The notes under the pieces were generated by a model that was not told where the DNA came from, ran no database searches, and saw nothing but the letters and a program-made list of their open reading frames with translations. A stretch of DNA of 64,000 nt from an uncultured Phycisphaeraceae bacterium (GTDB lineage Bacteria > Planctomycetota > Phycisphaerae > UBA1845), in NCBI GenBank assembly GCA_964495075.1, contig CAZBUJ010000010.1:14334-78333 (forward strand), written 5' to 3'. The first letter of the stretch is position 1, and every line of letters starts with the position of its first letter. Below are positions 36,606-50,985 of the stretch, in pieces. Position numbers and translations under genes: made by a program.

Positions 36606-37988
36606 GTGATGGCGGCTGCAATCCAAGGGGGCCGACCACGCCGAACGCTCGGCCAGTGGATCCGGGCGTCGGTTCTCGGTCTACAATGCAAATCCACCGT
36701 GCTCGTCGTCGCCCTGACGCTCTGCGTGGCGACCGTCGTGGGCGGACTGTTCGTTCACTTCGCCGGACGCCTCACCGCGAAGAACCAGGAACGACACGCC
36801 ACCCAGCTTTGCGCCGGATTGGCCCAACTGGCCGCCGATGCCCTCGCCCAGCGGGACTGGCCGCACCTGCAGCGAGTCGCCAACAAATTCGCCAGCGGTG
36901 ACCCGCTCATCTTCGTCTCCTTCTGCGATGCGCAGGGCCGGTCGTGGGCATCCGCGTCCCGGAACGACCTGCCGATCGACCCGGCCTGGCTCCAGCTCGG
37001 GGAGGACGCCCGCCGAACGGTGGGCCAGCCTCTGCTCCGCTACGAGCATCCGGGCGTCCCGACCTTCCTCGACGTCAGCTACCCCATCAACCGAGCACTG
37101 GCGGCCACCGACGGTGGGCCCAGCCCACTGCTCGGGTACGTGCGAGTCGGCTTCAATGTCGATCCCACGCTGAAGGAGTTCGCGGGGGTGATGGATCTCG
37201 TTTCCGGCATCGCCCTGGTGGTCGTCCTCATCACGATCCCGTTCGCGTTCCTCGTCGTCCGGCAGATCGTGGTGCCGCTCAACGAGCTGTCGCTCACGGC
37301 CGAGAAGCTTGCCCAGGGCGACCGGTCCGCCCGCTCCCGCGTGAGCCGGACCGACGAGATCGGACAACTCGCCCGGTCGTTCAACCACATGGCGGACGAG
37401 ATCGATCGCAACGAAAAGAAGATCACGGCCATGAACGCGGACCTTGAGGAACGGGTCCGCGATCGCACCCGGCAGTTGAAGGAGATGGCAGCCCGCGATC
37501 CGCTCACCGGCCTCTACAACCGGCGCCACGTGGACGAGGTCCTCGCCCGCAGCTTCGCCGAAGCCAAGCGCTACGGGCACCCCCTTTCCTGCCTGATGAT
37601 CGATCTCGACAACTTCAAGGCGGTCAACGACCGGTTCGGCCACCATGCCGGGGACCAGGCGTTGATGCTGGCCGCGGACACCGTTTCGGGCGAGTTGCGG
37701 GCGTCGGACATCGCGGCACGCTTCGGCGGCGACGAATTCGTCGTCCTGCTGCCCCACGCCGAGCAGGAACAGGCGGCCGTGCTGGCCCGGCGGATCGCCG
37801 ACCGGTTCGCGAGCAACATCCGGGCCGCGCTGCCGACGCTCCGTACGCGATTGAGCATCGGAATCGCCAGTCTGGGCGACGGCGACGCGGATCGTCCGGA
37901 GGGCCTGGTACGAGCCGCCGACCGCGCCCTCTACGCCGCCAAGCAGCGCGGGCGCAATCGCATCGAAATCTCGCGAGTCCCCGTATAA
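36606..37988 (+). CDS. Diguanylate cyclase (TM sensor, HAMP, GGDEF) with an RxxD I-site
   Basis: HAMP (LNELSLTAEKLAQGD...IGQLARSFNHMADEI) and an active site RFGGDEFVVLL preceded by RASD five residues upstream. Confidence 0.85.
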   Translation: MMAAAIQGGRPRRTLGQWIRASVLGLQCKSTVLVVALTLCVATVVGGLFVHFAGRLTAKNQERHATQLCAGLAQLAADALAQRDWPHLQRVANKFASGDPLIFVSFCDAQGRSWASASRNDLPIDPAWLQLGEDARRTVGQPLLRYEHPGVPTFLDVSYPINRALAATDGGPSPLLGYVRVGFNVDPTLKEFAGVMDLVSGIALVVVLITIPFAFLVVRQIVVPLNELSLTAEKLAQGDRSARSRVSRTDEIGQLARSFNHMADEIDRNEKKITAMNADLEERVRDRTRQLKEMAARDPLTGLYNRRHVDEVLARSFAEAKRYGHPLSCLMIDLDNFKAVNDRFGHHAGDQALMLAADTVSGELRASDIAARFGGDEFVVLLPHAEQEQAAVLARRIADRFASNIRAALPTLRTRLSIGIASLGDGDADRPEGLVRAADRALYAAKQRGRNRIEISRVPV

Positions 37989-38151: not shown

Positions 38152-38562
38152 ATGTGGACGGAAGTCGGAAAATTCGTCGGCGGCAAGGTCCTGACGGCCG
38201 TACTGGTCGTCGGCGTGTTTGCCAGTGGATTTTGGTTCTACAGGCATCCGGAGCAGCTCCAGGCCATCTGGGGCGTGCTGAAATCGGTGCTCGCCTGGCT
38301 GGGATTCGTGATTGTCCTGCCCTGGGCCCTCTTTTTCGTGGTGGCCTGGGTCCGGCGGTTCGACAGCAACGCCGCCGCCGCCGCCATGCTGATTGCGTAT
38401 CTGCTGCTGGACGTGCTGGCCGCCCTGTACCTCGCCGGCTGGCACGTGAGCGGGGCCCTGACTTGGACCGTGCTGGTCCTTGGCTTCCTTGCAGCAGGAG
38501 TTTATAATTTCCTGGCCTGTGAGACGATCGACAACCGGCTCGAATCGTCCGAGGGCCTGTAA
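38152..38562 (+). CDS. Four-TM small membrane protein, hypothetical; first gene of the ESCRT-III/Vps4-like cluster
   Basis: 136 aa with four clear hydrophobic helices. It ends 22 nt upstream of the kinase ORF. Confidence 0.5.
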   Translation: MWTEVGKFVGGKVLTAVLVVGVFASGFWFYRHPEQLQAIWGVLKSVLAWLGFVIVLPWALFFVVAWVRRFDSNAAAAAMLIAYLLLDVLAALYLAGWHVSGALTWTVLVLGFLAAGVYNFLACETIDNRLESSEGL

Positions 38563-38625
38563 CGCCCGCGGTGGGAACGACGGGTGGACAGGGCCGAGCC
38601 GGCACAGAATAGGGAGGACCTGGCG

Positions 38626-39645
38626 ATGGTCAGCCTGAAAGCAGGCGACCGAATCAGCAACTACCTGCTCGAGGAGCTGGTGGGGACGGGCAGCTTCGCC
38701 CAGGTGTGGAGAGCCCGCCATCATACCCTTGACAAGGTCGTCGCGATCAAAGTCCTGACCGACCAGCAGTACGTTCGGAACTTCCGGCAGGAAGGGGTGG
38801 TCGTCCACGGACTGCGGCACCCCAACATCGTGCGGGTCGAGGACATTGACGCGTACGATGATCCGCCGTATCTGATCATGGAACTTGTGGACGGGCCCTC
38901 CTTGCGGAGGGTGATCGATGCCCACCCGGACGGATTGCCCATCCCCGCGTGCCAGACGGTGTTTGGCGGGTTGTGCAAGGCCCTTTCGTTTGCCCACGAG
39001 AACGGTTTGATCCATCGGGACATCAAGCCGGCCAACATTCTGCTCAACCATCGCGAAGACGATCTGACCACGCTGACGGAGCAGGCGGTCAAGGTGGGCG
39101 ATTTCGGCCTGGGCCGCACCGGCGGCGTGACCACCGCATCCATCATGCAGTCGGGCAGCCTTCAGACGGAAGAGGGCCGAAGCATCGCCGGCACCCTCGC
39201 GTACATGTCGCCCGAGCAGAAGGAGGGCGGGGCCGTGGACGCGCGGAGTGACCTCTATGCGTGCGGCATTGTCCTGTTCGAGATGCTGACGGGCAGTCGA
39301 CCGGCCGGAGTGGAGATCCCCAGTTCCGTGCGTTCGGACGTCCCTCCGGTCCTGGACGAGGCCTTTCGTCGCTGCTACACGCGGCTGGATCGCCGTGTCG
39401 CCTCCGCCGGTGACCTGCTCGACATCGTGCGGCGTACCGGTCCGTCGGGGCCGGCGGCGGCCGGCGGGGGGCTGACGTGCCCGTCGTGCCACGGGCGCGT
39501 CGCCGGTGGAGACCAGTTCTGCACCCACTGCGGATACCAGTTGGTCGAGTCGGTGCCGCGCTGTCCGTCGTGCCACGCGTTTGTCAATCGCACTGACCGG
39601 TACTGCATTTTCTGTGGGACGCAGTTGCAGAGAACCGGCGAGTAG
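38626..39645 (+). CDS. Ser/Thr protein kinase with a C-terminal double zinc ribbon
   Basis: GTGSFAQVW, VAIKVL, HRDIKPANILL, DFGLG and TLAYMSPEQ. C-terminus CPSCHGRVAGGDQFCTHCG...CPSCHAFVNRTDRYCIFCG. The ATG at 38626 is preceded by GGGAGGA. The maximal ORF starts with GTG at 38584. Confidence 0.85.
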   Translation: MVSLKAGDRISNYLLEELVGTGSFAQVWRARHHTLDKVVAIKVLTDQQYVRNFRQEGVVVHGLRHPNIVRVEDIDAYDDPPYLIMELVDGPSLRRVIDAHPDGLPIPACQTVFGGLCKALSFAHENGLIHRDIKPANILLNHREDDLTTLTEQAVKVGDFGLGRTGGVTTASIMQSGSLQTEEGRSIAGTLAYMSPEQKEGGAVDARSDLYACGIVLFEMLTGSRPAGVEIPSSVRSDVPPVLDEAFRRCYTRLDRRVASAGDLLDIVRRTGPSGPAAAGGGLTCPSCHGRVAGGDQFCTHCGYQLVESVPRCPSCHAFVNRTDRYCIFCGTQLQRTGE

Positions 39646-39662
39646 CATCGGGATCGAGTGAG

Positions 39663-39920
39663 ATGGCGTCGTGGATCTTCATCATCTTCGCGATCGTCCT
39701 CGTGGCCGGGCTCGTGCTCACCGCGGTGCTCATGATCATGTTCATCGTTCATAGCGCCAAGCGGTCGTTGTCGGGACAATCGCCGCGCCAGCCGGCCGGC
39801 CCCGCCCGACGCGTTGGTGACCGACGGGCGAATGTTGACCGGATTTGTCCGAATGATCATTGTAGGCATCCGAACCGGTCGGATGCCCTCTATTGCGGCC
39901 AGTGCGGACGGCGGTTGTAA
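39663..39920 (+). CDS. Small single-TM protein with a C-terminal zinc ribbon
   Basis: 85 aa. TM helix WIFIIFAIVLVAGLVLTAVLMIMFIV, then CPNDHCRHPNRSDALYCGQCG. Confidence 0.5.
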   Translation: MASWIFIIFAIVLVAGLVLTAVLMIMFIVHSAKRSLSGQSPRQPAGPARRVGDRRANVDRICPNDHCRHPNRSDALYCGQCGRRL

Positions 39921-39923
39921 ACG

Positions 39924-41396
39924 TTGACCGATTCATCGAGCGGACAATCCGGCCGGCTGAACGCGGACGCGGCGGAGACCCTTCGGGTCGAGACGGAGTT
40001 TCTGTCCGGCGTGGAGGCCAACCTCGAGGCCGCCAAGGGCGGGCTGTTGCCCGGCGATCGCTGGCGTGCCGTGCGGGACGACGAGAGCGACGCCTTGCGG
40101 GCGATGATGGCCTCCCGGCGGATGTACGACCGCGAGTTGCTCAAGCAGCTCCCGCACAACCGGCGGATCGTGGTCCAGGGCTCGCAGCGTCGCTGGCTCC
40201 TGTTCCGCCGTCCGACCGAGGTGGCCATTGCCACCGTGGTGGCACCGTTTGAGCACTTGCTGACGCCCGAGTCGACCACCGCACCCCCGGTCACGCTCGG
40301 CGAGTTGACCGCCCACGTGCGCGGGCTGGTGGGCGAGGCCAAGGTGCCGCACGTTGTCGGCGTCTGTTCGCCCAGCGGATTCGCCGACGACGTGCGGGAG
40401 ACGCGCCTGGACATGCCGAACGTCACCATCGTGCTGGTCGAGCCGCGGGCGGGCGGCGGGTGGACCATCGCGACGCCCGGCGGAACCCAGGTCTCGGAGA
40501 ACATCCGAAAGCTGTACGACCCCGAGGCGATTAGCCAGAAGGTGACCCGGGCGCTGCGGGAGATCGAACACCGCCGGGTCGACCTGTTGACGGGCGGGCT
40601 GTCGGCCGCGTCGATCGCCGCGGGCACCGGGCTGCCCGAAGGAGTGGTCATGTTGGCCTTCAAGAAGGTGGCGGGCGAAGACACCGAGCTGCGCGTGACC
40701 CGCCGCTCGGGACATGTGGTGCTCTACCGCGGAGCGCCATCACGGTCGCAGGAGAGTAGTGCCATGAACGTCGTCGATCGCATCCGCGCACTGTTTTCAT
40801 CGGAAGGCGACGAAGCCCAGAAGATCAACGTGCTGGCCGAGCGACGGGCCAACCTCGCCCAACGCCGCGATCGGCTCTACGAGGACATCGGCAAGCTGGA
40901 AAAACGCGAGGCCGAGCTGCTCAATGAAGGACGGACGTCCAAATCGCAGGTCACCCGCCGGCGGCTGGCCGCCCAGCTGGGGCAGCTTCGCAAGGACATC
41001 GCGCGGCAGAACACGACCGCCAACATGCTGAATCAGCAGATCAACATCCTCAGCACCGACATCCACAACCTCACGCTGATCCAGCAAGGCCAGATGGCCA
41101 GCCTGCCCAATACCGAGGAACTGACCGAGAACGCGGTCAAAGCCGAGGAAATGCTCGAAACCCTCCGGGCCGACGCGGACATGGTCGCCGGCCTGGAAAC
41201 AGGACTGGCCGACGTGGCGACCAGCGACGAAGAACTGGCCATTCTCAAGGAGTTCGACGAGCCGGAGGCACCGAGGCAAACGGCCAGCGCCGACAGCGCG
41301 GCGGAACGCGAGGTGATGCGCGAGTTCGACCAACCGCAAGAAGAGGCGAGGCCAGAGAAGAACGCAGGGAAGCAACGGGCCGACCCGGAGGCGTGA
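39924..41396 (+). CDS. Fusion protein: unknown N-terminal domain (about 270 aa, possibly ending in a winged helix) plus a C-terminal ESCRT-III/Snf7-like helical domain
   Basis: The region from about aa 275 (MNVVDRIRALFSSEGDEAQKINVLAERRANLAQRRDRLYEDIGKLEKREAELLNEG...LRKDIARQNTTANMLNQQINILSTDIHNLTLIQQG...TENAVKAEEMLETLRADADMVAGLE) follows the Snf7 helix pattern, with a basic hairpin and then an acidic tail. The tail carries the repeated motifs LAILKEFDEPE and REVMREFDQPQ. Confidence 0.6.
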   Translation: MTDSSSGQSGRLNADAAETLRVETEFLSGVEANLEAAKGGLLPGDRWRAVRDDESDALRAMMASRRMYDRELLKQLPHNRRIVVQGSQRRWLLFRRPTEVAIATVVAPFEHLLTPESTTAPPVTLGELTAHVRGLVGEAKVPHVVGVCSPSGFADDVRETRLDMPNVTIVLVEPRAGGGWTIATPGGTQVSENIRKLYDPEAISQKVTRALREIEHRRVDLLTGGLSAASIAAGTGLPEGVVMLAFKKVAGEDTELRVTRRSGHVVLYRGAPSRSQESSAMNVVDRIRALFSSEGDEAQKINVLAERRANLAQRRDRLYEDIGKLEKREAELLNEGRTSKSQVTRRRLAAQLGQLRKDIARQNTTANMLNQQINILSTDIHNLTLIQQGQMASLPNTEELTENAVKAEEMLETLRADADMVAGLETGLADVATSDEELAILKEFDEPEAPRQTASADSAAEREVMREFDQPQEEARPEKNAGKQRADPEA

Positions 41397-41441
41397 GCGA
41401 TCCGTCCCGCAAGCCCGACGAGACACCGCGAAGGTACAACG

Positions 41442-42050
41442 ATGGACTTCTTCGACTGGCTGACCAAGCGAAAGAAACCGCTGTCCGAAATGTCGCGAGC
41501 CGAACTCCGGCGGCAGGAGCTGCTGCTGGAGAAAGACCGCACGCAACTGCTCAACAAGGTCACCAAGCTGGCCAAGGCCAAGCAGGAGCTGTTCGAACGC
41601 GGGGCCGGTGAGAAGACCCCCGAAGTCCGGCGCATCCTGGCCCAGGAGTTCGAACTGAAGACCACCGAGCAGCTCATGCTCTCCCGGCAACTCAATATCC
41701 GCAGCAAGGAGATGATGACCGTCTCCCGGCTGCGGATGCTCCGCGAGAACGCCGAGCGGGCGGCCAGTACCGGCGGCAAGCTCGGCCTGATCAACGAAAA
41801 GGACATGCTGCGCCTCGGACGCCTCATCGAGAACGACTCGATCAAGGCCGAAGCGTACCAGGAGCGTCTCGACGAGATCCTCTCGATGGGGGCGGAAGTG
41901 GACGAAGGGGCCGCCGGGCTGTCCGAGGCCGGTCAGTCCGTGCTCGACATCTGGGACAAGATGGACGCCGGCGCCATCGCGGACTCGCGGGAAGCGTTTG
42001 AGGAAGCGGATCGACGCGTCCGGGAGCAGGCCAGTCCGGCCGAGGAGTAG
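41442..42050 (+). CDS. ESCRT-III/Snf7 (PspA-superfamily)-like protein
   Basis: 202 aa. N-terminus MDFFDWLTKRKKP, a basic helical hairpin in the first half, and an acidic C-terminal half. The length and charge asymmetry are typical of ESCRT-III subunits. Confidence 0.65.
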   Translation: MDFFDWLTKRKKPLSEMSRAELRRQELLLEKDRTQLLNKVTKLAKAKQELFERGAGEKTPEVRRILAQEFELKTTEQLMLSRQLNIRSKEMMTVSRLRMLRENAERAASTGGKLGLINEKDMLRLGRLIENDSIKAEAYQERLDEILSMGAEVDEGAAGLSEAGQSVLDIWDKMDAGAIADSREAFEEADRRVREQASPAEE

Positions 42051-42056
42051 CCCATC

Positions 42057-42257
42057 ATGGCGGGATCGCAACCACTGCGTCGATCCGTCAACAACCGTGT
42101 CATCGCCGGGGTGGTGGGAGGCGTCGCCGAGCACTTCGGCCTGGACGCCACCCTGTTGAGGGTGGTCTACGTGCTGGCGAGTGTGCTGTCGGCGGCGTTC
42201 CCGGGTATGCTGGTCTACCTCATCTGCTGGTTGATCATCCCCGAGCGCGAGTATTAG
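42057..42257 (+). CDS. PspC-domain membrane protein
   Basis: 66 aa. LRRSVNNRVIAGVVGGVAEHFGLDATLLRVVYVLASVLSAAFPGMLVYLICWLIIPE is a canonical PspC domain. Confidence 0.8.
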   Translation: MAGSQPLRRSVNNRVIAGVVGGVAEHFGLDATLLRVVYVLASVLSAAFPGMLVYLICWLIIPEREY

Positions 42258-42322
42258 GCAACCAGACCGTCGTGCAGAAACCGGGGAGCCCCGGTCGTCC
42301 GCGCGAAACGCGAGCGGAACTC

Positions 42323-42922
42323 ATGGCACTATTCAAGTCAGCGGAAGAGCGGCGGATTGAACGCGACATCAAGATCCGGCAGGGCATCCGCCGGATCGAG
42401 AAGGCCATTCGCGAGCAGAACAAGTTCGCGGACGAGTTCATCAAGAACGCCCAGCGGGCCAGGAAAATGGGCGACAACGCCCAGTACAAGTTCATCCGCA
42501 ACTCGCTCAAGAAAACAGCCGCCGTCAAGCGGGCCCTCGAGCGGCAGTTGCTCTCGGTCAAAAACGCCCTGCTCATCAAGCGGCAGGCCGAGGCGTCCGC
42601 CGACTTCGCCCAGTGCATGGGCACGATGGCCACCGAGATCGGCAAGCTGTTTGGCGAGACCGACCTGCTCAAGACCCAGGCCGATTGGGAGAAGGCCATG
42701 GTCCAGTCGCAGTCGATGGAGGAACGGATGTCGATGTTCCTCGACACCATCGAGGACATCGCCGCCGAAGACACCGAGGCCGCTGAACTGGTCACCGACG
42801 AAGAGATCGACCGCATGATCGAGGCCGAACAGGAAGCCGAGCACCAGAAAGAGCTGGGAAAACTCGCGAACCTGCGAGCGGAGCTGGACTCCTTGAAAGG
42901 CGAAGGCGAGAAGCAGAAGTGA
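42323..42922 (+). CDS. ESCRT-III (Vps2/CHMP1-2-like) protein with a C-terminal amphipathic MIM-like helix
   Basis: 199 aa from the ATG at 42323 (MALFKSAEERRIERDIKIRQGIRRIEKAIREQNKF...). The order basic N-half, acidic C-half (DTIEDIAAEDTEAAELVTDEEIDRMIEAEQEAE), then terminal KLANLRAELDSLKG parallels CHMP-type subunits. The maximal ORF starts with GTG at 42272. Confidence 0.7.
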   Translation: MALFKSAEERRIERDIKIRQGIRRIEKAIREQNKFADEFIKNAQRARKMGDNAQYKFIRNSLKKTAAVKRALERQLLSVKNALLIKRQAEASADFAQCMGTMATEIGKLFGETDLLKTQADWEKAMVQSQSMEERMSMFLDTIEDIAAEDTEAAELVTDEEIDRMIEAEQEAEHQKELGKLANLRAELDSLKGEGEKQK

Positions 42923-42927
42923 GCGGT

Positions 42928-43128
42928 AATGACAAATTACAAATTACTAATTACTAATGAACATGGCGGCAGAGCGGGTATCGGCAAATGGATATACGAA
43001 TAATTGGATGCAAGGGCCGGGAAGCGAGATGTGCCGGTGTGCGCCCTCCTAATGGGCCATACACAACAATTGACAATAGCTCCGTTGCGTCGCCTCATTC
43101 GTAATTAGTAATTGGTAATTAGTAATTC
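42928..43128. repeat. AT-rich imperfect inverted repeat (about 33-bp arms, each about four tandem heptamers of AATTACN / GTAATTN) flanking a core of about 135 bp
   Basis: The left arm at 42928-42960 reads aatgacAAATTACAAATTACTAATTACTAATGA. The right arm at 43096-43128 reads TCATTCGTAATTAGTAATTGGTAATTAGTAATTc. About 29 of 33 positions are complementary by my hand alignment. The repeat ends 11 nt before the Vps4-like ATG. Confidence 0.7.
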
Positions 43129-43139
43129 ACCTGCGTCCC

Positions 43140-44258
43140 ATGACCGTGTCCTTTTCAACCTTCGAGCGTCTCAAGACCAAGGGCGTCTGCGCCTACAAGA
43201 AGGGCGAGTACAACTCGGCCAAATCGTACCTCATCGAGGCCGCCGAATGCATGGTCGAGCTGGCGGAGAAGGCGCCATCGGCCGAAGTGCGCCGTCAGCG
43301 CGAGGAGATTGCGGCCGAGCTGATCGACCTGGCTCGCGATTGCGAACGATACAAGACCTCGCCACCCCGGCGGCGGCAGGCCGCACGGGAACGCGACGAC
43401 GACAGCGGCCGCGACGCCTCCGACTGGATCCTGAAGGAGAAGCCCGACTTCGGCTTCGACCATATCGCCGGCCTCGATGACGTCAAAGAGGAAATCCGGC
43501 TCAAGATGATCTACCCGTTCAACCACCCGGAACTCGCCCGGAAGTACGGGATCGGGGTCGGCGGCGGCGTGCTCCTCTACGGGCCGCCCGGCACGGGCAA
43601 AACCATGATGGCCAAGGCCGTCGCCCACGAGGTCGAGGCGACCTTCTTCGTCATCAGCCCCGCCCAGGTGCTGAGCAAATGGGTCGGCGAGGCGGAGCAG
43701 AACATCCAGAAACTCTTCGACGCCGCCACGAGTGAGGCGAAATCAGTCATCTTCATCGACGAGATCGAGGCCCTCGTCCCGCGGCGTAAGTCGGACGGGT
43801 CGAGCGTCATGCAACGCGTGGTCCCCCAGATCCTCCAGGAGCTGGAAGGATTCGACCGGAAGGGGGACCGGGCCCTATTATTTGTCGGAGCCACCAACAA
43901 GCCGTGGATGCTGGACGAGGCCATGCTGCGGCCCGGTCGGTTCGACACGCGAATCTACCTGGGCTTGCCCGACCCGCCGGCGTTGTACCGGCTATTGGAG
44001 ATCTACTTCGGCGACCGCCCGCTGTCCGACGACGTCGACTTCAGCCGCCTGTGCGACGGGCTCGACGGCTACAGCGGCGCCGACATCAAGAACATCGCGC
44101 AACAGGCGGCGGCCATCCCGTTTATGGAATCGGTGGCCGGAGCGGAGCCGCGCCCGATCGCGATGAAGGACATCGAAAAGGTGATCGAAAGTACCCCGCC
44201 TTCGGTCAAGCAATCGGACCTCGTGCGGTTCGAGAAGTTCGACAGCACGGGTCGATGA
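43140..44258 (+). CDS. MIT-domain AAA+ ATPase, Vps4-like (meiotic-clade AAA)
   Basis: 372 aa. An N-terminal three-helix, MIT-like region (KGVCAYKKGEYNSAKSYLIEAAECMVELAEKAPSAEVRRQREEIAAELIDLARDCERYK). Walker A GPPGTGKT, Walker B IFIDEIE, second region of homology ATNKPWMLDEAMLRPGRFD. The C-terminus STPPSVKQSDLVRFEKFDSTG resembles the Vps4/katanin/spastin tail. Confidence 0.85.
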   Translation: MTVSFSTFERLKTKGVCAYKKGEYNSAKSYLIEAAECMVELAEKAPSAEVRRQREEIAAELIDLARDCERYKTSPPRRRQAARERDDDSGRDASDWILKEKPDFGFDHIAGLDDVKEEIRLKMIYPFNHPELARKYGIGVGGGVLLYGPPGTGKTMMAKAVAHEVEATFFVISPAQVLSKWVGEAEQNIQKLFDAATSEAKSVIFIDEIEALVPRRKSDGSSVMQRVVPQILQELEGFDRKGDRALLFVGATNKPWMLDEAMLRPGRFDTRIYLGLPDPPALYRLLEIYFGDRPLSDDVDFSRLCDGLDGYSGADIKNIAQQAAAIPFMESVAGAEPRPIAMKDIEKVIESTPPSVKQSDLVRFEKFDSTGR

Positions 44259-44342
44259 CCCGGGGCGACACCGCAGACGAAAGGAAGCGCTTCGGCGGCG
44301 ACCAAGGTGACCGAACGGGCGACGGCGGCCGGAGGTAAGACG

Positions 44343-46100
44343 ATGACAGCCAGGTTCGATGCCAAGCGCCTGTTCAACGACGTGGACGCCGTGGCGGCCG
44401 TGGTGCCGGCATCGGAGGTCTTCTCGCTACTGACGCGTGCGCTTGATCTTCCGCCCGCGTGGGCGGCCCTCGTCGGCGACGTCCAAGGGGGGCAGCGGTT
44501 CTTCGCGCCCGGTGAGGTCGTACCGCGCGAAAACGCCGATGAGCTGCTCCTCGTACGCGTCACGCCGATCGACCTCCGCGTCCAGGAATCCGGCCTCGTC
44601 TCCCGCGACAAGTACCAGTTCGATGCGGAAGTCCGCGTCCGGGTCGCGCTCATCGCCGATCGCGGGGAACTCAGCTCGTTTCAGAACACCGCGCTGGGCA
44701 GCAAGCGGACGGCCACCAGCGACACGTTGGCCCAACTCCTCCGTCCCGACATCCGGTCCGCCCTCATCGACGTGGTCGGCGAGTCGAACGCGGAGACACT
44801 GATCACCGATGCCGACCGCCACACCTGGTCCGACCGGCTGAACGCGGCACTCAAGCCGGTCTGTTTCCGCGCCGGCCTGGCCGTCGACGCGGCCCCGTCG
44901 GTGCGCTTCGATTCGCCGACGTTCCGGCAGGTGCGCGTGTCGCAGGAACAGACGGCCCGCCATCAGGCCGAGCACCAGGCACGCCGACAACTGGAGCAGG
45001 CCATCGAAGCGGCACAGGTCGAACACCTCGACCACCTCGAGAGCCTGCTGGCCCGGTTGAAGGACGCCGCCGACTCCTCACCGGACGTGGAACTGCCGGA
45101 GCTCATGCGTACCTTCTCGCAACGAGAGCGCGGCGAGATGTACGAGGCGCTGTTCGCGGCGGATTCGGTGCAGGCCACACGGTGGATCGTGGTGGCCACC
45201 AGCGACGGGCTTTACTGGTTCGACCCGGCATCGCCGGGCGAACCGGCCCGCGCCGTCGACGTCGTGCCGGAGGTCGGCGGGATTCGAAGCGTGCACTGTC
45301 TGCGTTCGTCCGCGAGTGATCAGCGACTGTTGCTCGGCGCCGCCCGTGGCGTGTACGAGTTCGTGCCCGAGGGCACGGATCCGGCTGCGATCTATGTCGC
45401 CGATCGGCAGCGCGAGGTCCGCGGCGGGTTCAACGCGGTCGCGCTGGCCGGCCGCCAACTCTGGGCGTCGCACTCGGAACTCGGCCTGGTCCGCTGGGAT
45501 CGCACGGCGCCGGACCGACCGGAGCCCGTTCTCGAATCGCAAACCCAAGCCGCCCGCGCGGTGCGCGGCGTGCTGTTCCACGAAGGGAAGATCTGGGTCT
45601 CGCTCGACGACCGGGTCGCGTCGCTGCCCGCCGATGCTCCCGGGTCCGAGCCCGATTGGTATACCGGCAGCGAGGCGACGATCACGGCCCTGGCCGTCAC
45701 GCCGGGCGGCGTGCTGGGCGGCACCGCGGACGGCCGGATCCTGCACTGGCGGTTCGACGAACCCCGGGCCCCGCAGACGCTGCACACCGGAAACCGGCGT
45801 TCGGTCGAGTCGATCCACGTGCTCAGCACCGGCGGCGTCGATCGCCTCTTCTTCACCGACACGTCGCTGGCCGTCCACGCCCGGGTGCGGGGCGATTCGT
45901 TTACGTGCCGTTACGAGGCGGGCGGCCAGACGTTGCGGCGGGTGGAGGTCATGCCGGACCTGATCGTGGCCACCAATGACGTGCGCGATCGCCTGGTCTG
46001 CTGGTCGCCGTCCAGACCCGACCAGCCCCGCGCGGTCATCCCCGTCGCCCGGCTGACCCACCATTCCGTACAGGATGTCTGCCTCGTGCCGACGGCGTGA
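44343..46100 (+). CDS. SPFH/Band-7-like N-domain, coiled coil, and C-terminal beta-propeller-like domain protein
   Basis: The N-domain pattern (LLLVRVTPIDLRVQ...FDAEVRVRVALI...LAQLLRPDIRSALIDVVGESNAETLIT...AGLAVDAAPSVRFDSPTF) resembles SPFH. It is followed by a Gln/Glu/Arg-rich coiled coil and about 300 aa of repetitive beta-rich sequence. An alternative GTG start lies at 44307. Confidence 0.55.
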   Translation: MTARFDAKRLFNDVDAVAAVVPASEVFSLLTRALDLPPAWAALVGDVQGGQRFFAPGEVVPRENADELLLVRVTPIDLRVQESGLVSRDKYQFDAEVRVRVALIADRGELSSFQNTALGSKRTATSDTLAQLLRPDIRSALIDVVGESNAETLITDADRHTWSDRLNAALKPVCFRAGLAVDAAPSVRFDSPTFRQVRVSQEQTARHQAEHQARRQLEQAIEAAQVEHLDHLESLLARLKDAADSSPDVELPELMRTFSQRERGEMYEALFAADSVQATRWIVVATSDGLYWFDPASPGEPARAVDVVPEVGGIRSVHCLRSSASDQRLLLGAARGVYEFVPEGTDPAAIYVADRQREVRGGFNAVALAGRQLWASHSELGLVRWDRTAPDRPEPVLESQTQAARAVRGVLFHEGKIWVSLDDRVASLPADAPGSEPDWYTGSEATITALAVTPGGVLGGTADGRILHWRFDEPRAPQTLHTGNRRSVESIHVLSTGGVDRLFFTDTSLAVHARVRGDSFTCRYEAGGQTLRRVEVMPDLIVATNDVRDRLVCWSPSRPDQPRAVIPVARLTHHSVQDVCLVPTA

Positions 46101-50185: not shown

Positions 50186-50761
50186 CTACTTCTTCCTTTT
50201 TTTGGCCTTGGCTTTTTTCGCCCTCGCCGCCTTGGTCGCCTTTTTGGCCGTGGTGACGGTTTTTGCCTTCACGACCTTCTTCACCGTCTTCTTGACGGCT
50301 TTCTTGGTTGTCTTGGTCGCCTTGGTCTTGGTCGTTTTCTTGGCGGTCGCCTTCTTCGCGGTCTTCTCCTTGGCGACCGCGACTTTCGGTTTGGGCCCAC
50401 GAATGATCGATGGCGTGAGCGGCTTCTTGGGGGCTTTCACTCTGGCGGCCGCCTTCTTCGACTTGCTCGGCTCGGGGATGGGCTCCGGCTTCCACCGGTT
50501 CTTGGTATCGGGCGGTGGCGGCACCGTATCATCGATGGCGGACACCAACAGCCCGGTGTAATACCCCTCGGCTTGAAGCCGTTCCATCTGCGCGTCGGCG
50601 TCTTTCTTGTCCACGCATTTTAGCAGGGTGAGCGTCAAGCCATCGGCATAGCCGGTCAGCTTCCAGGCGAACGCGGGCGGCTCCTTCTTTTTCGCGGCGG
50701 GGCTCGCCGACGTCTCGGTACCGCTGTTTTCTTCTGTCTTTTCTCTGGGTTCGTTTTCCAC
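50186..50761 (-). CDS. Protein with a small globular N-domain and a Lys/Ala/Thr-rich histone-H1-like C-terminal tail
   Basis: 191 aa. The C-terminal 80 or so aa read KPKVAVAKEKTAKKATAKKTTKTKATKTTKKAVKKTVKKVVKAKTVTTAKKATKAARAKKAKAKKRKK. Confidence 0.6.
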   Translation of the reverse strand: MENEPREKTEENSGTETSASPAAKKKEPPAFAWKLTGYADGLTLTLLKCVDKKDADAQMERLQAEGYYTGLLVSAIDDTVPPPPDTKNRWKPEPIPEPSKSKKAAARVKAPKKPLTPSIIRGPKPKVAVAKEKTAKKATAKKTTKTKATKTTKKAVKKTVKKVVKAKTVTTAKKATKAARAKKAKAKKRKK

Positions 50762-50911: not shown

Positions 50912-50985
50912 CGCGCCCGGGAGGACTCGAACCTCCAACCTACTGGTTCGAAGCCAGCCACTCTATCCAATTGAGCTACGGGCGC
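50912..50985 (-). tRNA. tRNA-Arg (anticodon TCG), 74 nt, CCA not encoded
   Basis: Hand-folded cloverleaf: acceptor GCGCCCG/CGGGCGC, D arm GCTC-AATTGGATA-GAGT, anticodon stem GCTGG/CCAGT with loop CTTCGAA, variable loop AGGTT, T arm GGAGG-TTCGAGT-CCTCC, discriminator G. Confidence 0.85.

Follow-up and report, generated by a model that had tools for sequence, protein, structure and literature searches.

A candidate ESCRT-III/Vps4-like membrane-remodelling module in the genome of an uncultured Phycisphaeraceae bacterium

According to a 2025 review, a Vps4-like ATPase "appears absent in bacteria" and the bacterial relatives of ESCRT-III, PspA and Vipp1, must be regulated otherwise (PMC7619361). 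Ravi et al. (2024) reported bacterial genes of a 'MIT+Vps4-AAA-ATPase' class, with Planctomycetes among the hosts, and interpreted them as transfers from Archaea; in such operons snf7 is reportedly displaced by a gene for a TPR+6TM protein, and in Clostridium a double-AAA protein is encoded beside PspA (PMC11237479). Links of SPFH proteins with PspA and with ESCRT are also documented (PMC10936438, PMC11237479), including the SPFH association of B. subtilis PspA-YdjI (PMC10936438). Here we describe a stretch of 64,000 nucleotides (the window) from an uncultured Phycisphaeraceae bacterium (assembly GCA_964495075.1, contig CAZBUJ010000010.1, positions 14,334 to 78,333), in which the gene of a 372-amino-acid (aa) AAA+ ATPase follows that of a 199-aa helical protein, H216. 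Judged by sequence comparison and predicted structure, the gene cluster around this pair appears to be a bacterial ESCRT-III/Vps4-like membrane-remodelling module. A search of the open-access literature brought up no bacterial case in which a soluble Snf7-family gene is described as the partner of a single-cassette MIT-AAA gene.

The ATPase open reading frame (ORF) begins with ATG and occupies 43140..44258 on the forward strand in the ORF listing of the window. It is not a chance ORF, because more than 120 protein clusters are related to it over their full length with 70-99 % identity, chiefly from Phycisphaerae and Planctomycetota metagenome-assembled genomes, and orthologues are present in 48 loci of species-representative genomes (GTDB). 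An earlier note on this DNA, made from the sequence alone, had read the gene as an MIT-like three-helix domain, a Pro/Arg/Asp-rich linker and a single AAA cassette with a Vps4/spastin-type tail. All motif strings quoted there were found in the ORF. Pfam recognized one AAA cassette and no more (residues 144-275; E-value 1.9e-41), followed by AAA_lid_3 (residues 298-333) and Vps4_C (residues 336-367; 30.1 bits, cut-off 21.3). The linker was also confirmed at residues 73-96, and it differs in length and sequence between relatives. The catalytic set is intact and includes Walker A and B, sensor 1, the arginine fingers and an aromatic pore loop. Neither a protease domain nor a transmembrane anchor was found in the ATPase, and a promoter and terminator scan was uninformative.

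The N-terminal domain was modelled with AlphaFold2 (residues 1-85; mean predicted local distance difference test score, pLDDT, of 84.8). Helices were placed at residues 5-21, 24-43 and 48-72, mostly with pLDDT >90, which agrees with the three helices that had been read at about 8 to 75; KGEYNSAKSYLIEAAECMVELAEK and EEIAAELIDLARDCERYK lie within residues 21-72. When the model was compared with the PDB using Foldseek, the best matches were nearly all MIT domains (VPS4B, VPS4A, MITD1, S. solfataricus Vps4, yeast Vps4, katanin p60, NRBF2, calpain-7 and chitin synthase). The root-mean-square deviation (rmsd) was 1.1 Å for katanin p60, 1.2 Å for MITD1 and 1.6 Å for S. solfataricus Vps4, and it reached 5.5 Å for one nuclear magnetic resonance model of VPS4B. 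Probability was 1.0 and the template modelling (TM) score 0.7-0.84, with E-values of 0.06-1, which are weak, as expected for a 70-residue bundle.

Profile searches gave the same picture. With the single sequence, the N-terminal domain found its best PDB match in an oomycete chitin synthase, whose MIT domain (2MPK) gave an E-value of 0.33. With a profile of 20 N-terminal domains including distant relatives, 2MPK was matched at an E-value of 3.3e-5 with all three helices aligned, and the MIT domain of calpain-7 at 0.034. The NCBIfam CdvC model runs co-linearly through the domain (residues 13-367 against profile positions 16-364 of 370), and the domain contributes about 18 bits to the CdvC score beyond the AAA part alone. 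Pfam MIT (PF04212) did not match the window ATPase or the Phycisphaerae proteins; it matched the Firmicutes member of the ATPase family with an E-value of 3.2e-4. When the N-terminal 96-101 residues were searched alone against Pfam and NCBIfam, no MIT match was obtained, only TPR_2 at an E-value of 0.06. A generic TPR fold without MIT matches, which the earlier note had named as part of an outcome that would count against it, was checked and rejected, because the TPR matches (designed TPR proteins) span helices 1-2 only, whereas the MIT matches extend over all three and make up most of the fold-search results. On the model, the fold search and the 2MPK profile match, residues 5-72 are an MIT-fold domain, as the earlier note had proposed.

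The protein encoded upstream, H216, starts at ATG 42323 (MALFKS..., 199 aa) and not at the listed GTG 42272 (216 aa), as judged from 33 orthologues, and it shares 70-89 % identity across Phycisphaerae. When its family profile was compared with the PDB, the top match was CHMP3 (E-value 0.038, helices alpha1-alpha4); a more diverse profile had archaeal CdvB at the top (E-value 0.0016) and also matched CHMP2A (E-value 0.9). Pfam Snf7 was precomputed for two distant homologues (P0289 and P0353) and was present in 11 of the 35 family members (best E-value 1.9e-5), every other Pfam family being found in three members at most. PspA_IM30 (PF04012) matched none of the three helical proteins of the cluster or their relatives.

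The AlphaFold2 model of H216 consists of helices 7-49, 52-110, 115-149 and 159-198, that is, a long alpha1-alpha2 hairpin (pLDDT 85-90) and then shorter helices, as in ESCRT-III. CdvB (semi-open and closed) and CHMP2A were the top Foldseek matches, and BAR, eisosome and generic long hairpins came after them. With a net charge of +13 the N-terminal half is basic, and with -16 the C-terminal half is acidic, a dipole of the ESCRT-III type. At its C-terminus H216 has a conserved amphipathic helix, KELGKLANLRAELDSLK, in which L184, E187 and E196 are invariant and L181, R185, L188, L191 and K192 are conserved in at least 90 % of orthologues; the Firmicutes counterpart is DLEIDRRLAELEK. The helix resembles MIM1, whose consensus is (D/E)xxLxxRLxxL(K/R), and is a putative docking site for the MIT domain of the ATPase. 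By these profile and model comparisons, H216 appears to be a member of the Snf7/ESCRT-III family.

For synteny, the window proteins were compared by tblastn with 80 GTDB loci and three further loci (numbered with the prefix L). All window genes from 38152 to 46100 are on the forward strand. The whole cluster was observed in about 30-35 Phycisphaerae loci in the order 353-aa protein, GGDEF protein, 136-aa membrane protein, kinase, 85-aa protein, 490-aa protein, 202-aa protein (H202), PspC protein, 199-aa protein (H216), ATPase and SPFH protein. The tightest link is that of the ATPase and the SPFH protein, the latter being encoded downstream in 40 of the 48 loci with a gap of 535 bp or less. Distant ATPase relatives are 33-40 % identical and have an N-terminal domain of the same type. 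In these, an H216 homologue of about 200 aa directly adjoins the ATPase, both in Planctomycetia/Pirellulaceae (L052, L053, L057, L059 and L084; gaps 0-30 bp) and in Firmicutes (L058 and L085; gaps 10-40 bp), and H202 homologues and SPFH-like genes are often close by. The adjacency of the H216 and ATPase genes across phyla is the strongest argument for their joint function. The arrangement that the earlier note had called defining for Vps4/CdvC, a one-cassette MIT-AAA gene beside an ESCRT-III-like gene, thus holds for H216 in Phycisphaerae, Planctomycetia and Firmicutes.

Several loci deviate in their gene content. Two Bacillota proteins (L060:7992-9971 and L065:7974-9947; 657-659 aa) have an MIT-like N-terminal domain and two AAA cassettes. 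The tree described below places both of these cassettes within the bacterial family, which indicates an internal duplication, and the PspA-linked double-AAA proteins that were reported for Clostridium may be the counterparts of these proteins. Locus L084 has a second short AAA gene (L084:3952-4716, reverse strand; 254 aa, weak Vps4_C match), and genes for a 234-aa and a 490-aa protein are also found there on the strand opposite to the Snf7-like/ATPase pair, which suggests paralogous sets. A 558-kb contig labelled as an Alphaproteobacteria metagenome-assembled genome (L027, JANQQE010000024.1) carries a complete Phycisphaerae-type cluster at about 70 % identity and is probably mis-binned or mislabelled.

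The AAA module (residues 97-372) was compared with reference modules of archaeal CdvC, Cdc48 and PAN from the genome scan, of crenarchaeal CdvC and human p97 from PDB alignments, and of yeast Vps4, human spastin and human katanin, whose sequences agreed with the PDB entries (about 2.1-2.2 bits per residue). Ranking of whole proteins against the PDB was misleading, as the two-cassette p97/Cdc48 proteins fill the top 60 places by summed score, and per-domain scores were used instead. These were 184-204 bits for archaeal Cdc48 D2, 194 bits for p97 D2, 174-190 bits for CdvC, 181-183 bits for PAN, 164 bits for yeast Vps4, 150 bits for katanin and 147 bits for spastin, so that raw pairwise similarity of the module sequences expresses no preference for the meiotic clade. 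Among NCBIfam models, CdvC was the best with 246.7 bits, which is under its 650-bit equivalog cut-off (228.3 bits for the AAA part alone); PAN scored 220.9 and CDC48 217.5 bits.

Kimura distances over 268 aligned columns of 40 AAA modules were used to draw a neighbour-joining tree, with 300 bootstraps and p97 D1 as the root. The bacterial ATPase family was monophyletic (99 %) and included the Phycisphaerae and Planctomycetia proteins, a Blautia-type Firmicute and the two-cassette Bacillota proteins. Together with CdvC, Vps4, katanin and spastin it formed a clade (100 %) that left Cdc48 D2, PAN and Cdc48 D1 outside. Support for this clade was retained with gamma and p-distances (100 %), without eukaryotes (100 %), without distant bacteria (100 %) and with the ATPase core alone (88 %), and a grouping of the bacteria with Cdc48 D2 received 0 % with the full alignment and 4 % with the core alone. 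The lid and C-terminal region alone had no phylogenetic signal. Within the clade, the bacterial family was sister to CdvC, Vps4, katanin and spastin and not nested within them; this reference meiotic set alone was supported at 67 % in the main tree and at 41-77 % over the trees with eukaryotes, and CdvC alone at 100 %.

The alignment shows the same mixture of characters. The motifs 'SKW.GE.E' and 'ATN[KR]PW.LD' are common to the bacterial proteins, CdvC and Vps4, although the pore loop 1 motif also occurs outside the Vps4 clade, SKWVGESE being found in one archaeal Cdc48 D2. Within ATNKPWMLDEAMLRPGRFD, 'NKPW.LDE' is of the CdvC/Vps4 type and 'RPGRFD' of the Cdc48/PAN type. The bacterial proteins keep the 'RPGRF' segment and a full-length loop before Walker A, both of which are shortened in CdvC, Vps4, katanin and spastin. 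A check of the Vps4 beta-domain and the pore loop, suggested in the earlier note, was made by alignment; the aromatic pore loop (SKWVGEAE) is present, but there is no insertion for a beta-domain between the lid helices and the C-terminal helix, and the same is true of archaeal CdvC.

The tail of the ATPase had been taken as diagnostic of the meiotic clade, and this does not stand. Human p97 D2 aligns with it residue for residue (SVSDNDIRKYEMFAQT), the same helix is found in archaeal Cdc48 D2, and Pfam Vps4_C gives 23.8 bits to p97 D2 and 27.9 bits to archaeal Cdc48 D2 but only 19.1 bits to genuine CdvC. Strict membership of the meiotic clade does not follow from the data, as the family groups with that clade (88-100 %) but as a sister that is without the arginine-finger deletion. 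From tree and alignment, the ATPase family is provisionally placed beside the Vps4 clade, as its sister or stem lineage, and not as a crown member. A Cdc48-like identity of the ATPase was rejected on its domain architecture (one cassette and an MIT N-terminal domain) and its tree position.

We give a probability of about 0.6 to the reading that the ATPase is a classical AAA+ unfoldase of the hexameric type which is recruited by its MIT domain to H216 polymers and remodels or recycles them. For the working of such a module we infer the following. H216 subunits would bind the cytoplasmic membrane via the basic N-terminal hairpin and the short hydrophobic MALFKS motif, and polymerise. The acidic C-terminal region, ending in the MIM1-like amphipathic helix, would dock on the MIT domain of the ATPase, which would thread an H216 subunit through its pore (pore loop SKWVG) at the expense of ATP. 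This threading would disassemble or remodel the H216 polymer, as Vps4/CdvC do for ESCRT-III/CdvB. The MIT domain may also recruit the ATPase to polymers of the two paralogous helical proteins. The PspC protein may be a membrane anchor or sensor and the SPFH protein a membrane-microdomain scaffold; together with the Ser/Thr kinase and the GGDEF protein they would locate the module to the membrane and subject it to control by signalling. Its cellular role is most likely membrane remodelling, maintenance or repair.

Several observations weigh against this reading. About 10 Phycisphaerae loci, L001/L041 (CP070827.1), L008, L017, L028, L034, L042 and L043 among them, have an isolated ATPase-SPFH pair and none of the helical and PspC genes within 3-8 kb, and the gap between the H216 and ATPase genes ranges from 9 bp to 3.7 kb across loci. 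The window H216 itself has no Pfam match at E-values up to 0.1, Snf7 included; its relatives do match, and the Snf7 assignment therefore rests on its family. All structural-search E-values, both for the MIT domain and for H216, are weak (0.05-1), and the likeness of the C-terminal helix of H216 to MIM1 is one to a consensus motif. By raw score the AAA module is equally close to Cdc48 D2 and CdvC, both of which rank above Vps4, katanin and spastin. The arginine-finger segment does not have the two-residue deletion of the Vps4 clade; it is LRPGRFDTRIY here and in all bacterial relatives, compared with R--RFQKR in CdvC, R--RFERR in Vps4, R--RLEKR in katanin and R--RFIKR in spastin. Finally, the tree is distance-based and built from 40 sequences, with FtsH, Msp1, Pex1/6, NSF and other bacterial AAA families left out; long-branch attraction is thus possible and the placement provisional. 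As a separate observation, unrelated genes are inserted in some of the H216-ATPase gaps, for example a 23S_rRNA_IVP-family gene near H216 in L002.

The constancy of the ATPase-SPFH link, in 40 of 48 loci and also where the helical genes are absent, allows another explanation, the main rival to this reading. The ATPase could work mainly with the downstream SPFH protein as a microdomain unfoldase for quality control, similar to FtsH with HflK/C, a pairing that is established; the MIT domain would then be a generic helical adaptor, and H216 a co-regulated but separate membrane-stress effector and not a substrate. SPFH-like genes are also found in the distant loci L055 and L058, and the AAA core has the RPGRFD of the Cdc48/PAN type and scores with Cdc48 D2 that equal those with CdvC. 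We nevertheless consider this unlikely. The immediate neighbour of the ATPase in Planctomycetia and Firmicutes is the Snf7-like gene and not the SPFH gene, the ATPase has neither the protease domain nor the membrane anchor, and MIT domains are known chiefly as binders of ESCRT-III tails (PMC9477494). A further explanation retains the H216-ATPase pair and assigns it to division: the module would be, or be part of, an FtsZ-independent cytokinesis machinery of Planctomycetota analogous to Cdv, in which Snf7-like polymers constrict the division site and the MIT-AAA ATPase drives polymer turnover. Planctomycetes are all without FtsZ, Phycisphaerae divide by binary fission with a mechanism that is unexplained, and Planctopirus can do without the canonical divisome genes ftsI, ftsW and mreB (PMC6952346). 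Conservation of the cluster extends over Phycisphaerae and that of the pair over Planctomycetia lineages, H216 is unusually conserved (70-89 % identity), and genes for a kinase and for cyclic di-GMP signalling are within the cluster. However, the pair is also present in Firmicutes (Blautia-type gut bacteria), and Firmicutes members have FtsZ. The PspC and SPFH context suggests envelope stress or repair, and the Tepidisphaerales locus L050 has no partners within 8 kb, so a role in cytokinesis appears distinctly improbable.

The origin and function of the ATPase could also be explained in two ways that we regard as less credible still. Recent horizontal acquisition of an archaeal CdvC/Vps4 gene, as for the reported 'MIT+Vps4-AAA-ATPase' class, is one of them, but the ATPase family is sister to CdvC/Vps4 and not within it. 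It has kept two ancestral features that CdvC/Vps4 have lost, the RPGRF segment and the loop of full length before Walker A, and because of these ancestral indel states a recent transfer is very unlikely; the neighbours, moreover, are Snf7-like, PspC and SPFH genes and not TPR+6TM, the reported examples being compared by description only. An anti-phage defence module, with an IetA/TRIP13-type AAA+ effector or sensor and a kinase, was considered since PADLOC IetA models match the ATPase with 97-119 bits, NCBIfam IteA matches it with 108.7 bits, and the PD-T4-6 and mad6 kinase models match the kinase. Such similarities are of a generic kind for AAA proteins and kinases, and they are well under the CdvC, PAN and Cdc48 scores (217-247 bits). 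No PADLOC defence model matches the helical, SPFH or PspC proteins, and the cluster context is stable and vertically conserved across many genomes, unlike typical defence islands. Identity as a defence system was rejected on the generic nature of the matches and has, in our view, almost no chance of being correct.

The positions of the features are listed in Table 1. Of the other helical proteins, H202 is 59-82 % identical across loci, and its relatives comprise 142 representative clusters in 1.84 billion proteins. Pfam Snf7 was found in only 2 of 58 H202 members (best E-value 2.5e-4), and the H202 family profile had no significant match in the PDB. When the H202 and H216 families were compared with hhalign, deeper profiles gave an ambiguous 13-35 % probability and shallow profiles were negative. 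H202 carries the motif MDFFDWLTKRKK at its N-terminus, and its net charge is +9/-13. The 490-aa protein is kept in about 30 loci; its C-terminal 215 residues match the H202 family with 97.4 % probability (E-value 1.1e-11, 170 columns), and these sequences are clear paralogues; a charge dipole of the H202 type is also present in this domain. Its profile had no significant ESCRT-III match in the PDB, with CdvB at an E-value of 1.6 as the sole ESCRT-III entry. ESCRT-III homology of H202 and the 490-aa protein is thus hinted at by the sequences. Of the three neighbouring helical proteins mentioned in the earlier note, the 199-aa H216 stands as a probable Snf7-family protein, but the 202-aa and 490-aa proteins show only weak Snf7 signals.

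As for the remaining genes, the C-terminal region of the SPFH protein is long and, on inspection of the sequence only, reads as coiled coil and beta-rich. The Ser/Thr kinase, presumed to be a regulator of the cluster, is present also in the Planctomycetia locus L053. Zinc-ribbon modules recur near the clusters (kinase C-terminus, a zinc-ribbon-like Cys motif read in the 85-aa protein, and an 84-aa DZR protein at L084:275-529). In the Thermoguttaceae locus L055 (11266-13185), the sequence of a 639-aa protein suggests an SPFH-like part, coiled coil and a zinc-ribbon-like Cys end.

Table 1. Features of the cluster, with window positions and the evidence for each
Feature	Position	Strand	Evidence
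HAMP-GGDEF diguanylate-cyclase-type protein, upstream edge of conserved cluster	36606..37988	+	synteny
Predicted membrane protein, 136 aa	38152..38562	+	synteny, identity 48-76 %; family scan empty
Ser/Thr protein kinase with C-terminal double zinc ribbon	38584..39645	+	Pfam Pkinase 1.4e-39, DZR; synteny
85-aa protein, N-terminal hydrophobic segment and zinc-ribbon-like Cys motif	39663..39920	+	ORF, sequence reading; detected in only some loci
490-aa protein, N-terminal domain of about 275 aa (no known family) and H202-paralogous C-terminal domain	39924..41396	+	hhalign
H202, helical protein, 202 aa, possible second ESCRT-III-like subunit	41442..42050	+	weak Snf7 signals
PspC-domain membrane protein, 66 aa	42057..42257	+	Pfam PspC E=1.7e-22; between H202 and H216 in most loci
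H216, Snf7/ESCRT-III-family protein, 199 aa	42323..42922	+	profiles, Pfam on relatives, AlphaFold2, Foldseek, charge
Conserved C-terminal amphipathic helix of H216, KELGKLANLRAELDSLK, MIM1-like	42848..42898	+	alignment of orthologues
MIT-AAA ATPase gene, 372 aa	43140..44258	+	ORF; Pfam AAA, AAA_lid_3, Vps4_C; best NCBIfam model CdvC
MIT-fold three-helix domain, residues 5-72	43152..43355	+	AlphaFold2, Foldseek, profile match 2MPK
Flexible Pro/Arg/Asp-rich linker TSPPRRRQAARERDDDSGRDASDW, residues 73-96	43356..43427	+	sequence; pLDDT <60 from residue 71 on
Walker A GPPGTGKT, residues 148-155	43581..43604	+	sequence, alignment
Pore loop 1 SKWVGEAE (aromatic-hydrophobic-Gly)	43674..43697	+	alignment; cf. 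CdvC SKWLGE[SA]E, Vps4 SKWMGESE
Walker B VIFIDEIE, residues 203-210	43746..43769	+	sequence
Sensor 1 and second region of homology ATNKPWMLDEAMLRPGRFD, residues 251-269	43890..43946	+	alignment of 40 AAA modules
Post-lid C-terminal helix with tail PSVKQSDLVRFEKFDSTGR (residues 354-372)	44145..44255	+	Pfam Vps4_C 336-367
SPFH/Band-7 protein, 597 aa	44307..46100	+	Pfam Band_7 residues 77-237, E=4.6e-7

The 217-bp spacer between the H216 and ATPase genes (42923-43139) is AT-rich, in a genome whose G+C content, measured over the window, is about 65 %. AATTAC[T/A] heptads in it make up an imperfect inverted repeat of 33 nt, whose arms (42928-42960 and 43095-43127) are separated by 134 nt. The two-heptad pattern, with two mismatches allowed, had 7 matches compared with 0.01 expected by chance, and the RNA fold z-score was -2.9. 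The heptad motif was found in none of 85 related loci, and the repeat may be a strain-specific small mobile element or operator. Elsewhere in the window, a 191-aa ORF (50186-50761, reverse strand) with a long Lys/Ala-rich C-terminal tail resembles histone H1 or Hc1-type nucleoid proteins; it adjoins the sole tRNA gene of the window, tRNA-Arg(TCG) at 50912-50985 (reverse strand).

If the conserved pairing of a Snf7-family gene with an MIT-AAA+ gene in at least three bacterial lineages is what it appears to be, it would qualify claims, made in recent reviews, that bacteria lack an ESCRT-III and Vps4-type pairing and would offer a simple bacterial system for ESCRT-III turnover. It would also provide a testable candidate for how FtsZ-less planctomycetes divide and shape complex membranes. 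Because the ATPase family combines Vps4-type and Cdc48-type features, it would bear on the question of an origin of Vps4 from Cdc48 in archaea alone. With its Cdc48-type features kept and its position as sister to CdvC/Vps4, the family could be a pre-archaeal Vps4 stem, which, if true, would push the pairing of ESCRT-III with a dedicated ATPase back towards the last universal common ancestor. That the family is such a stem and that the Snf7-like/MIT-AAA module is the planctomycete cytokinesis machinery, or a core part of it, is a speculative combination to which we give little credence.

When the locus is compared with known systems, the archaeal Cdv system is similar in several respects. CdvC is of almost identical length (372-373 aa), has the same order of MIT domain, linker, single AAA cassette, lid and C-terminal helix, is likewise without a beta-domain, shares the motifs 'SKW.GE.E' and 'ATNKPW.LDE' with the window ATPase and supplies its best NCBIfam model (NF041006). 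As in Cdv, the ATPase gene stands beside a gene of the Snf7 family, for which CdvB and CHMP2A/3 are the best relatives of solved structure. However, genuine CdvC proteins score 335-398 bits against solved CdvC and the window ATPase about 190 at most, and the arginine-finger segment is RRFQKRIY in CdvC and RPGRFD here. The cluster is without CdvA and H216 without the winged-helix extension. A proline-rich MIM2 is reported for CdvB, whereas the tail of H216 looks MIM1-like. In addition, the window comes from a bacterial host, and genes for PspC, SPFH and kinase proteins accompany the pair.

Among eukaryotic proteins, VPS4A/B, yeast Vps4 and katanin p60 match the N-terminal domain (rmsd mostly about 1.1-2.5 Å), and the window ATPase shares with Vps4 the classical-clade AAA architecture with a post-lid helix. 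H216 shares with eukaryotic ESCRT-III the long alpha1-alpha2 hairpin and the charge dipole, and its N-terminal 'M-x-LF-K' motif resembles the N-termini of CHMP proteins. The window ATPase differs from eukaryotic Vps4 by having neither the beta-domain/Vta1 site nor the clade indels and by scores (147-164 bits with Vps4, katanin and spastin) that are below those of Cdc48 D2, and no ESCRT-0, ESCRT-I or ESCRT-II components were seen at the locus. The Psp/Vipp1 system is similar in its PspC-domain protein, in an ESCRT-III-superfamily effector and in a likely membrane maintenance role. It differs in that the H216 family matches Snf7 (PF03357) and not PspA_IM30, and in that the window ATPase is a classical-clade MIT-AAA protein and not the sigma-54 activator PspF; neither PspB nor PspF was seen.

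The genes of Ravi et al. encode, like the window, bacterial AAA+ ATPases and are annotated with an MIT+Vps4-type architecture, and the two-cassette proteins of L060 and L065 are similar to their Clostridium protein. By description, the partner in their operons is TPR+6TM or PspA, whereas in the window it is a soluble Snf7-family protein with PspC and SPFH. The D2 modules of Cdc48/p97/VAT gave the highest pairwise scores outside the family (184-204 bits) and share RPGRFD and the 'SV..DL..YE.F' helix with the window ATPase. These proteins have two cassettes and a double-psi-barrel N-terminal domain, whereas the window ATPase has one cassette and an MIT domain.

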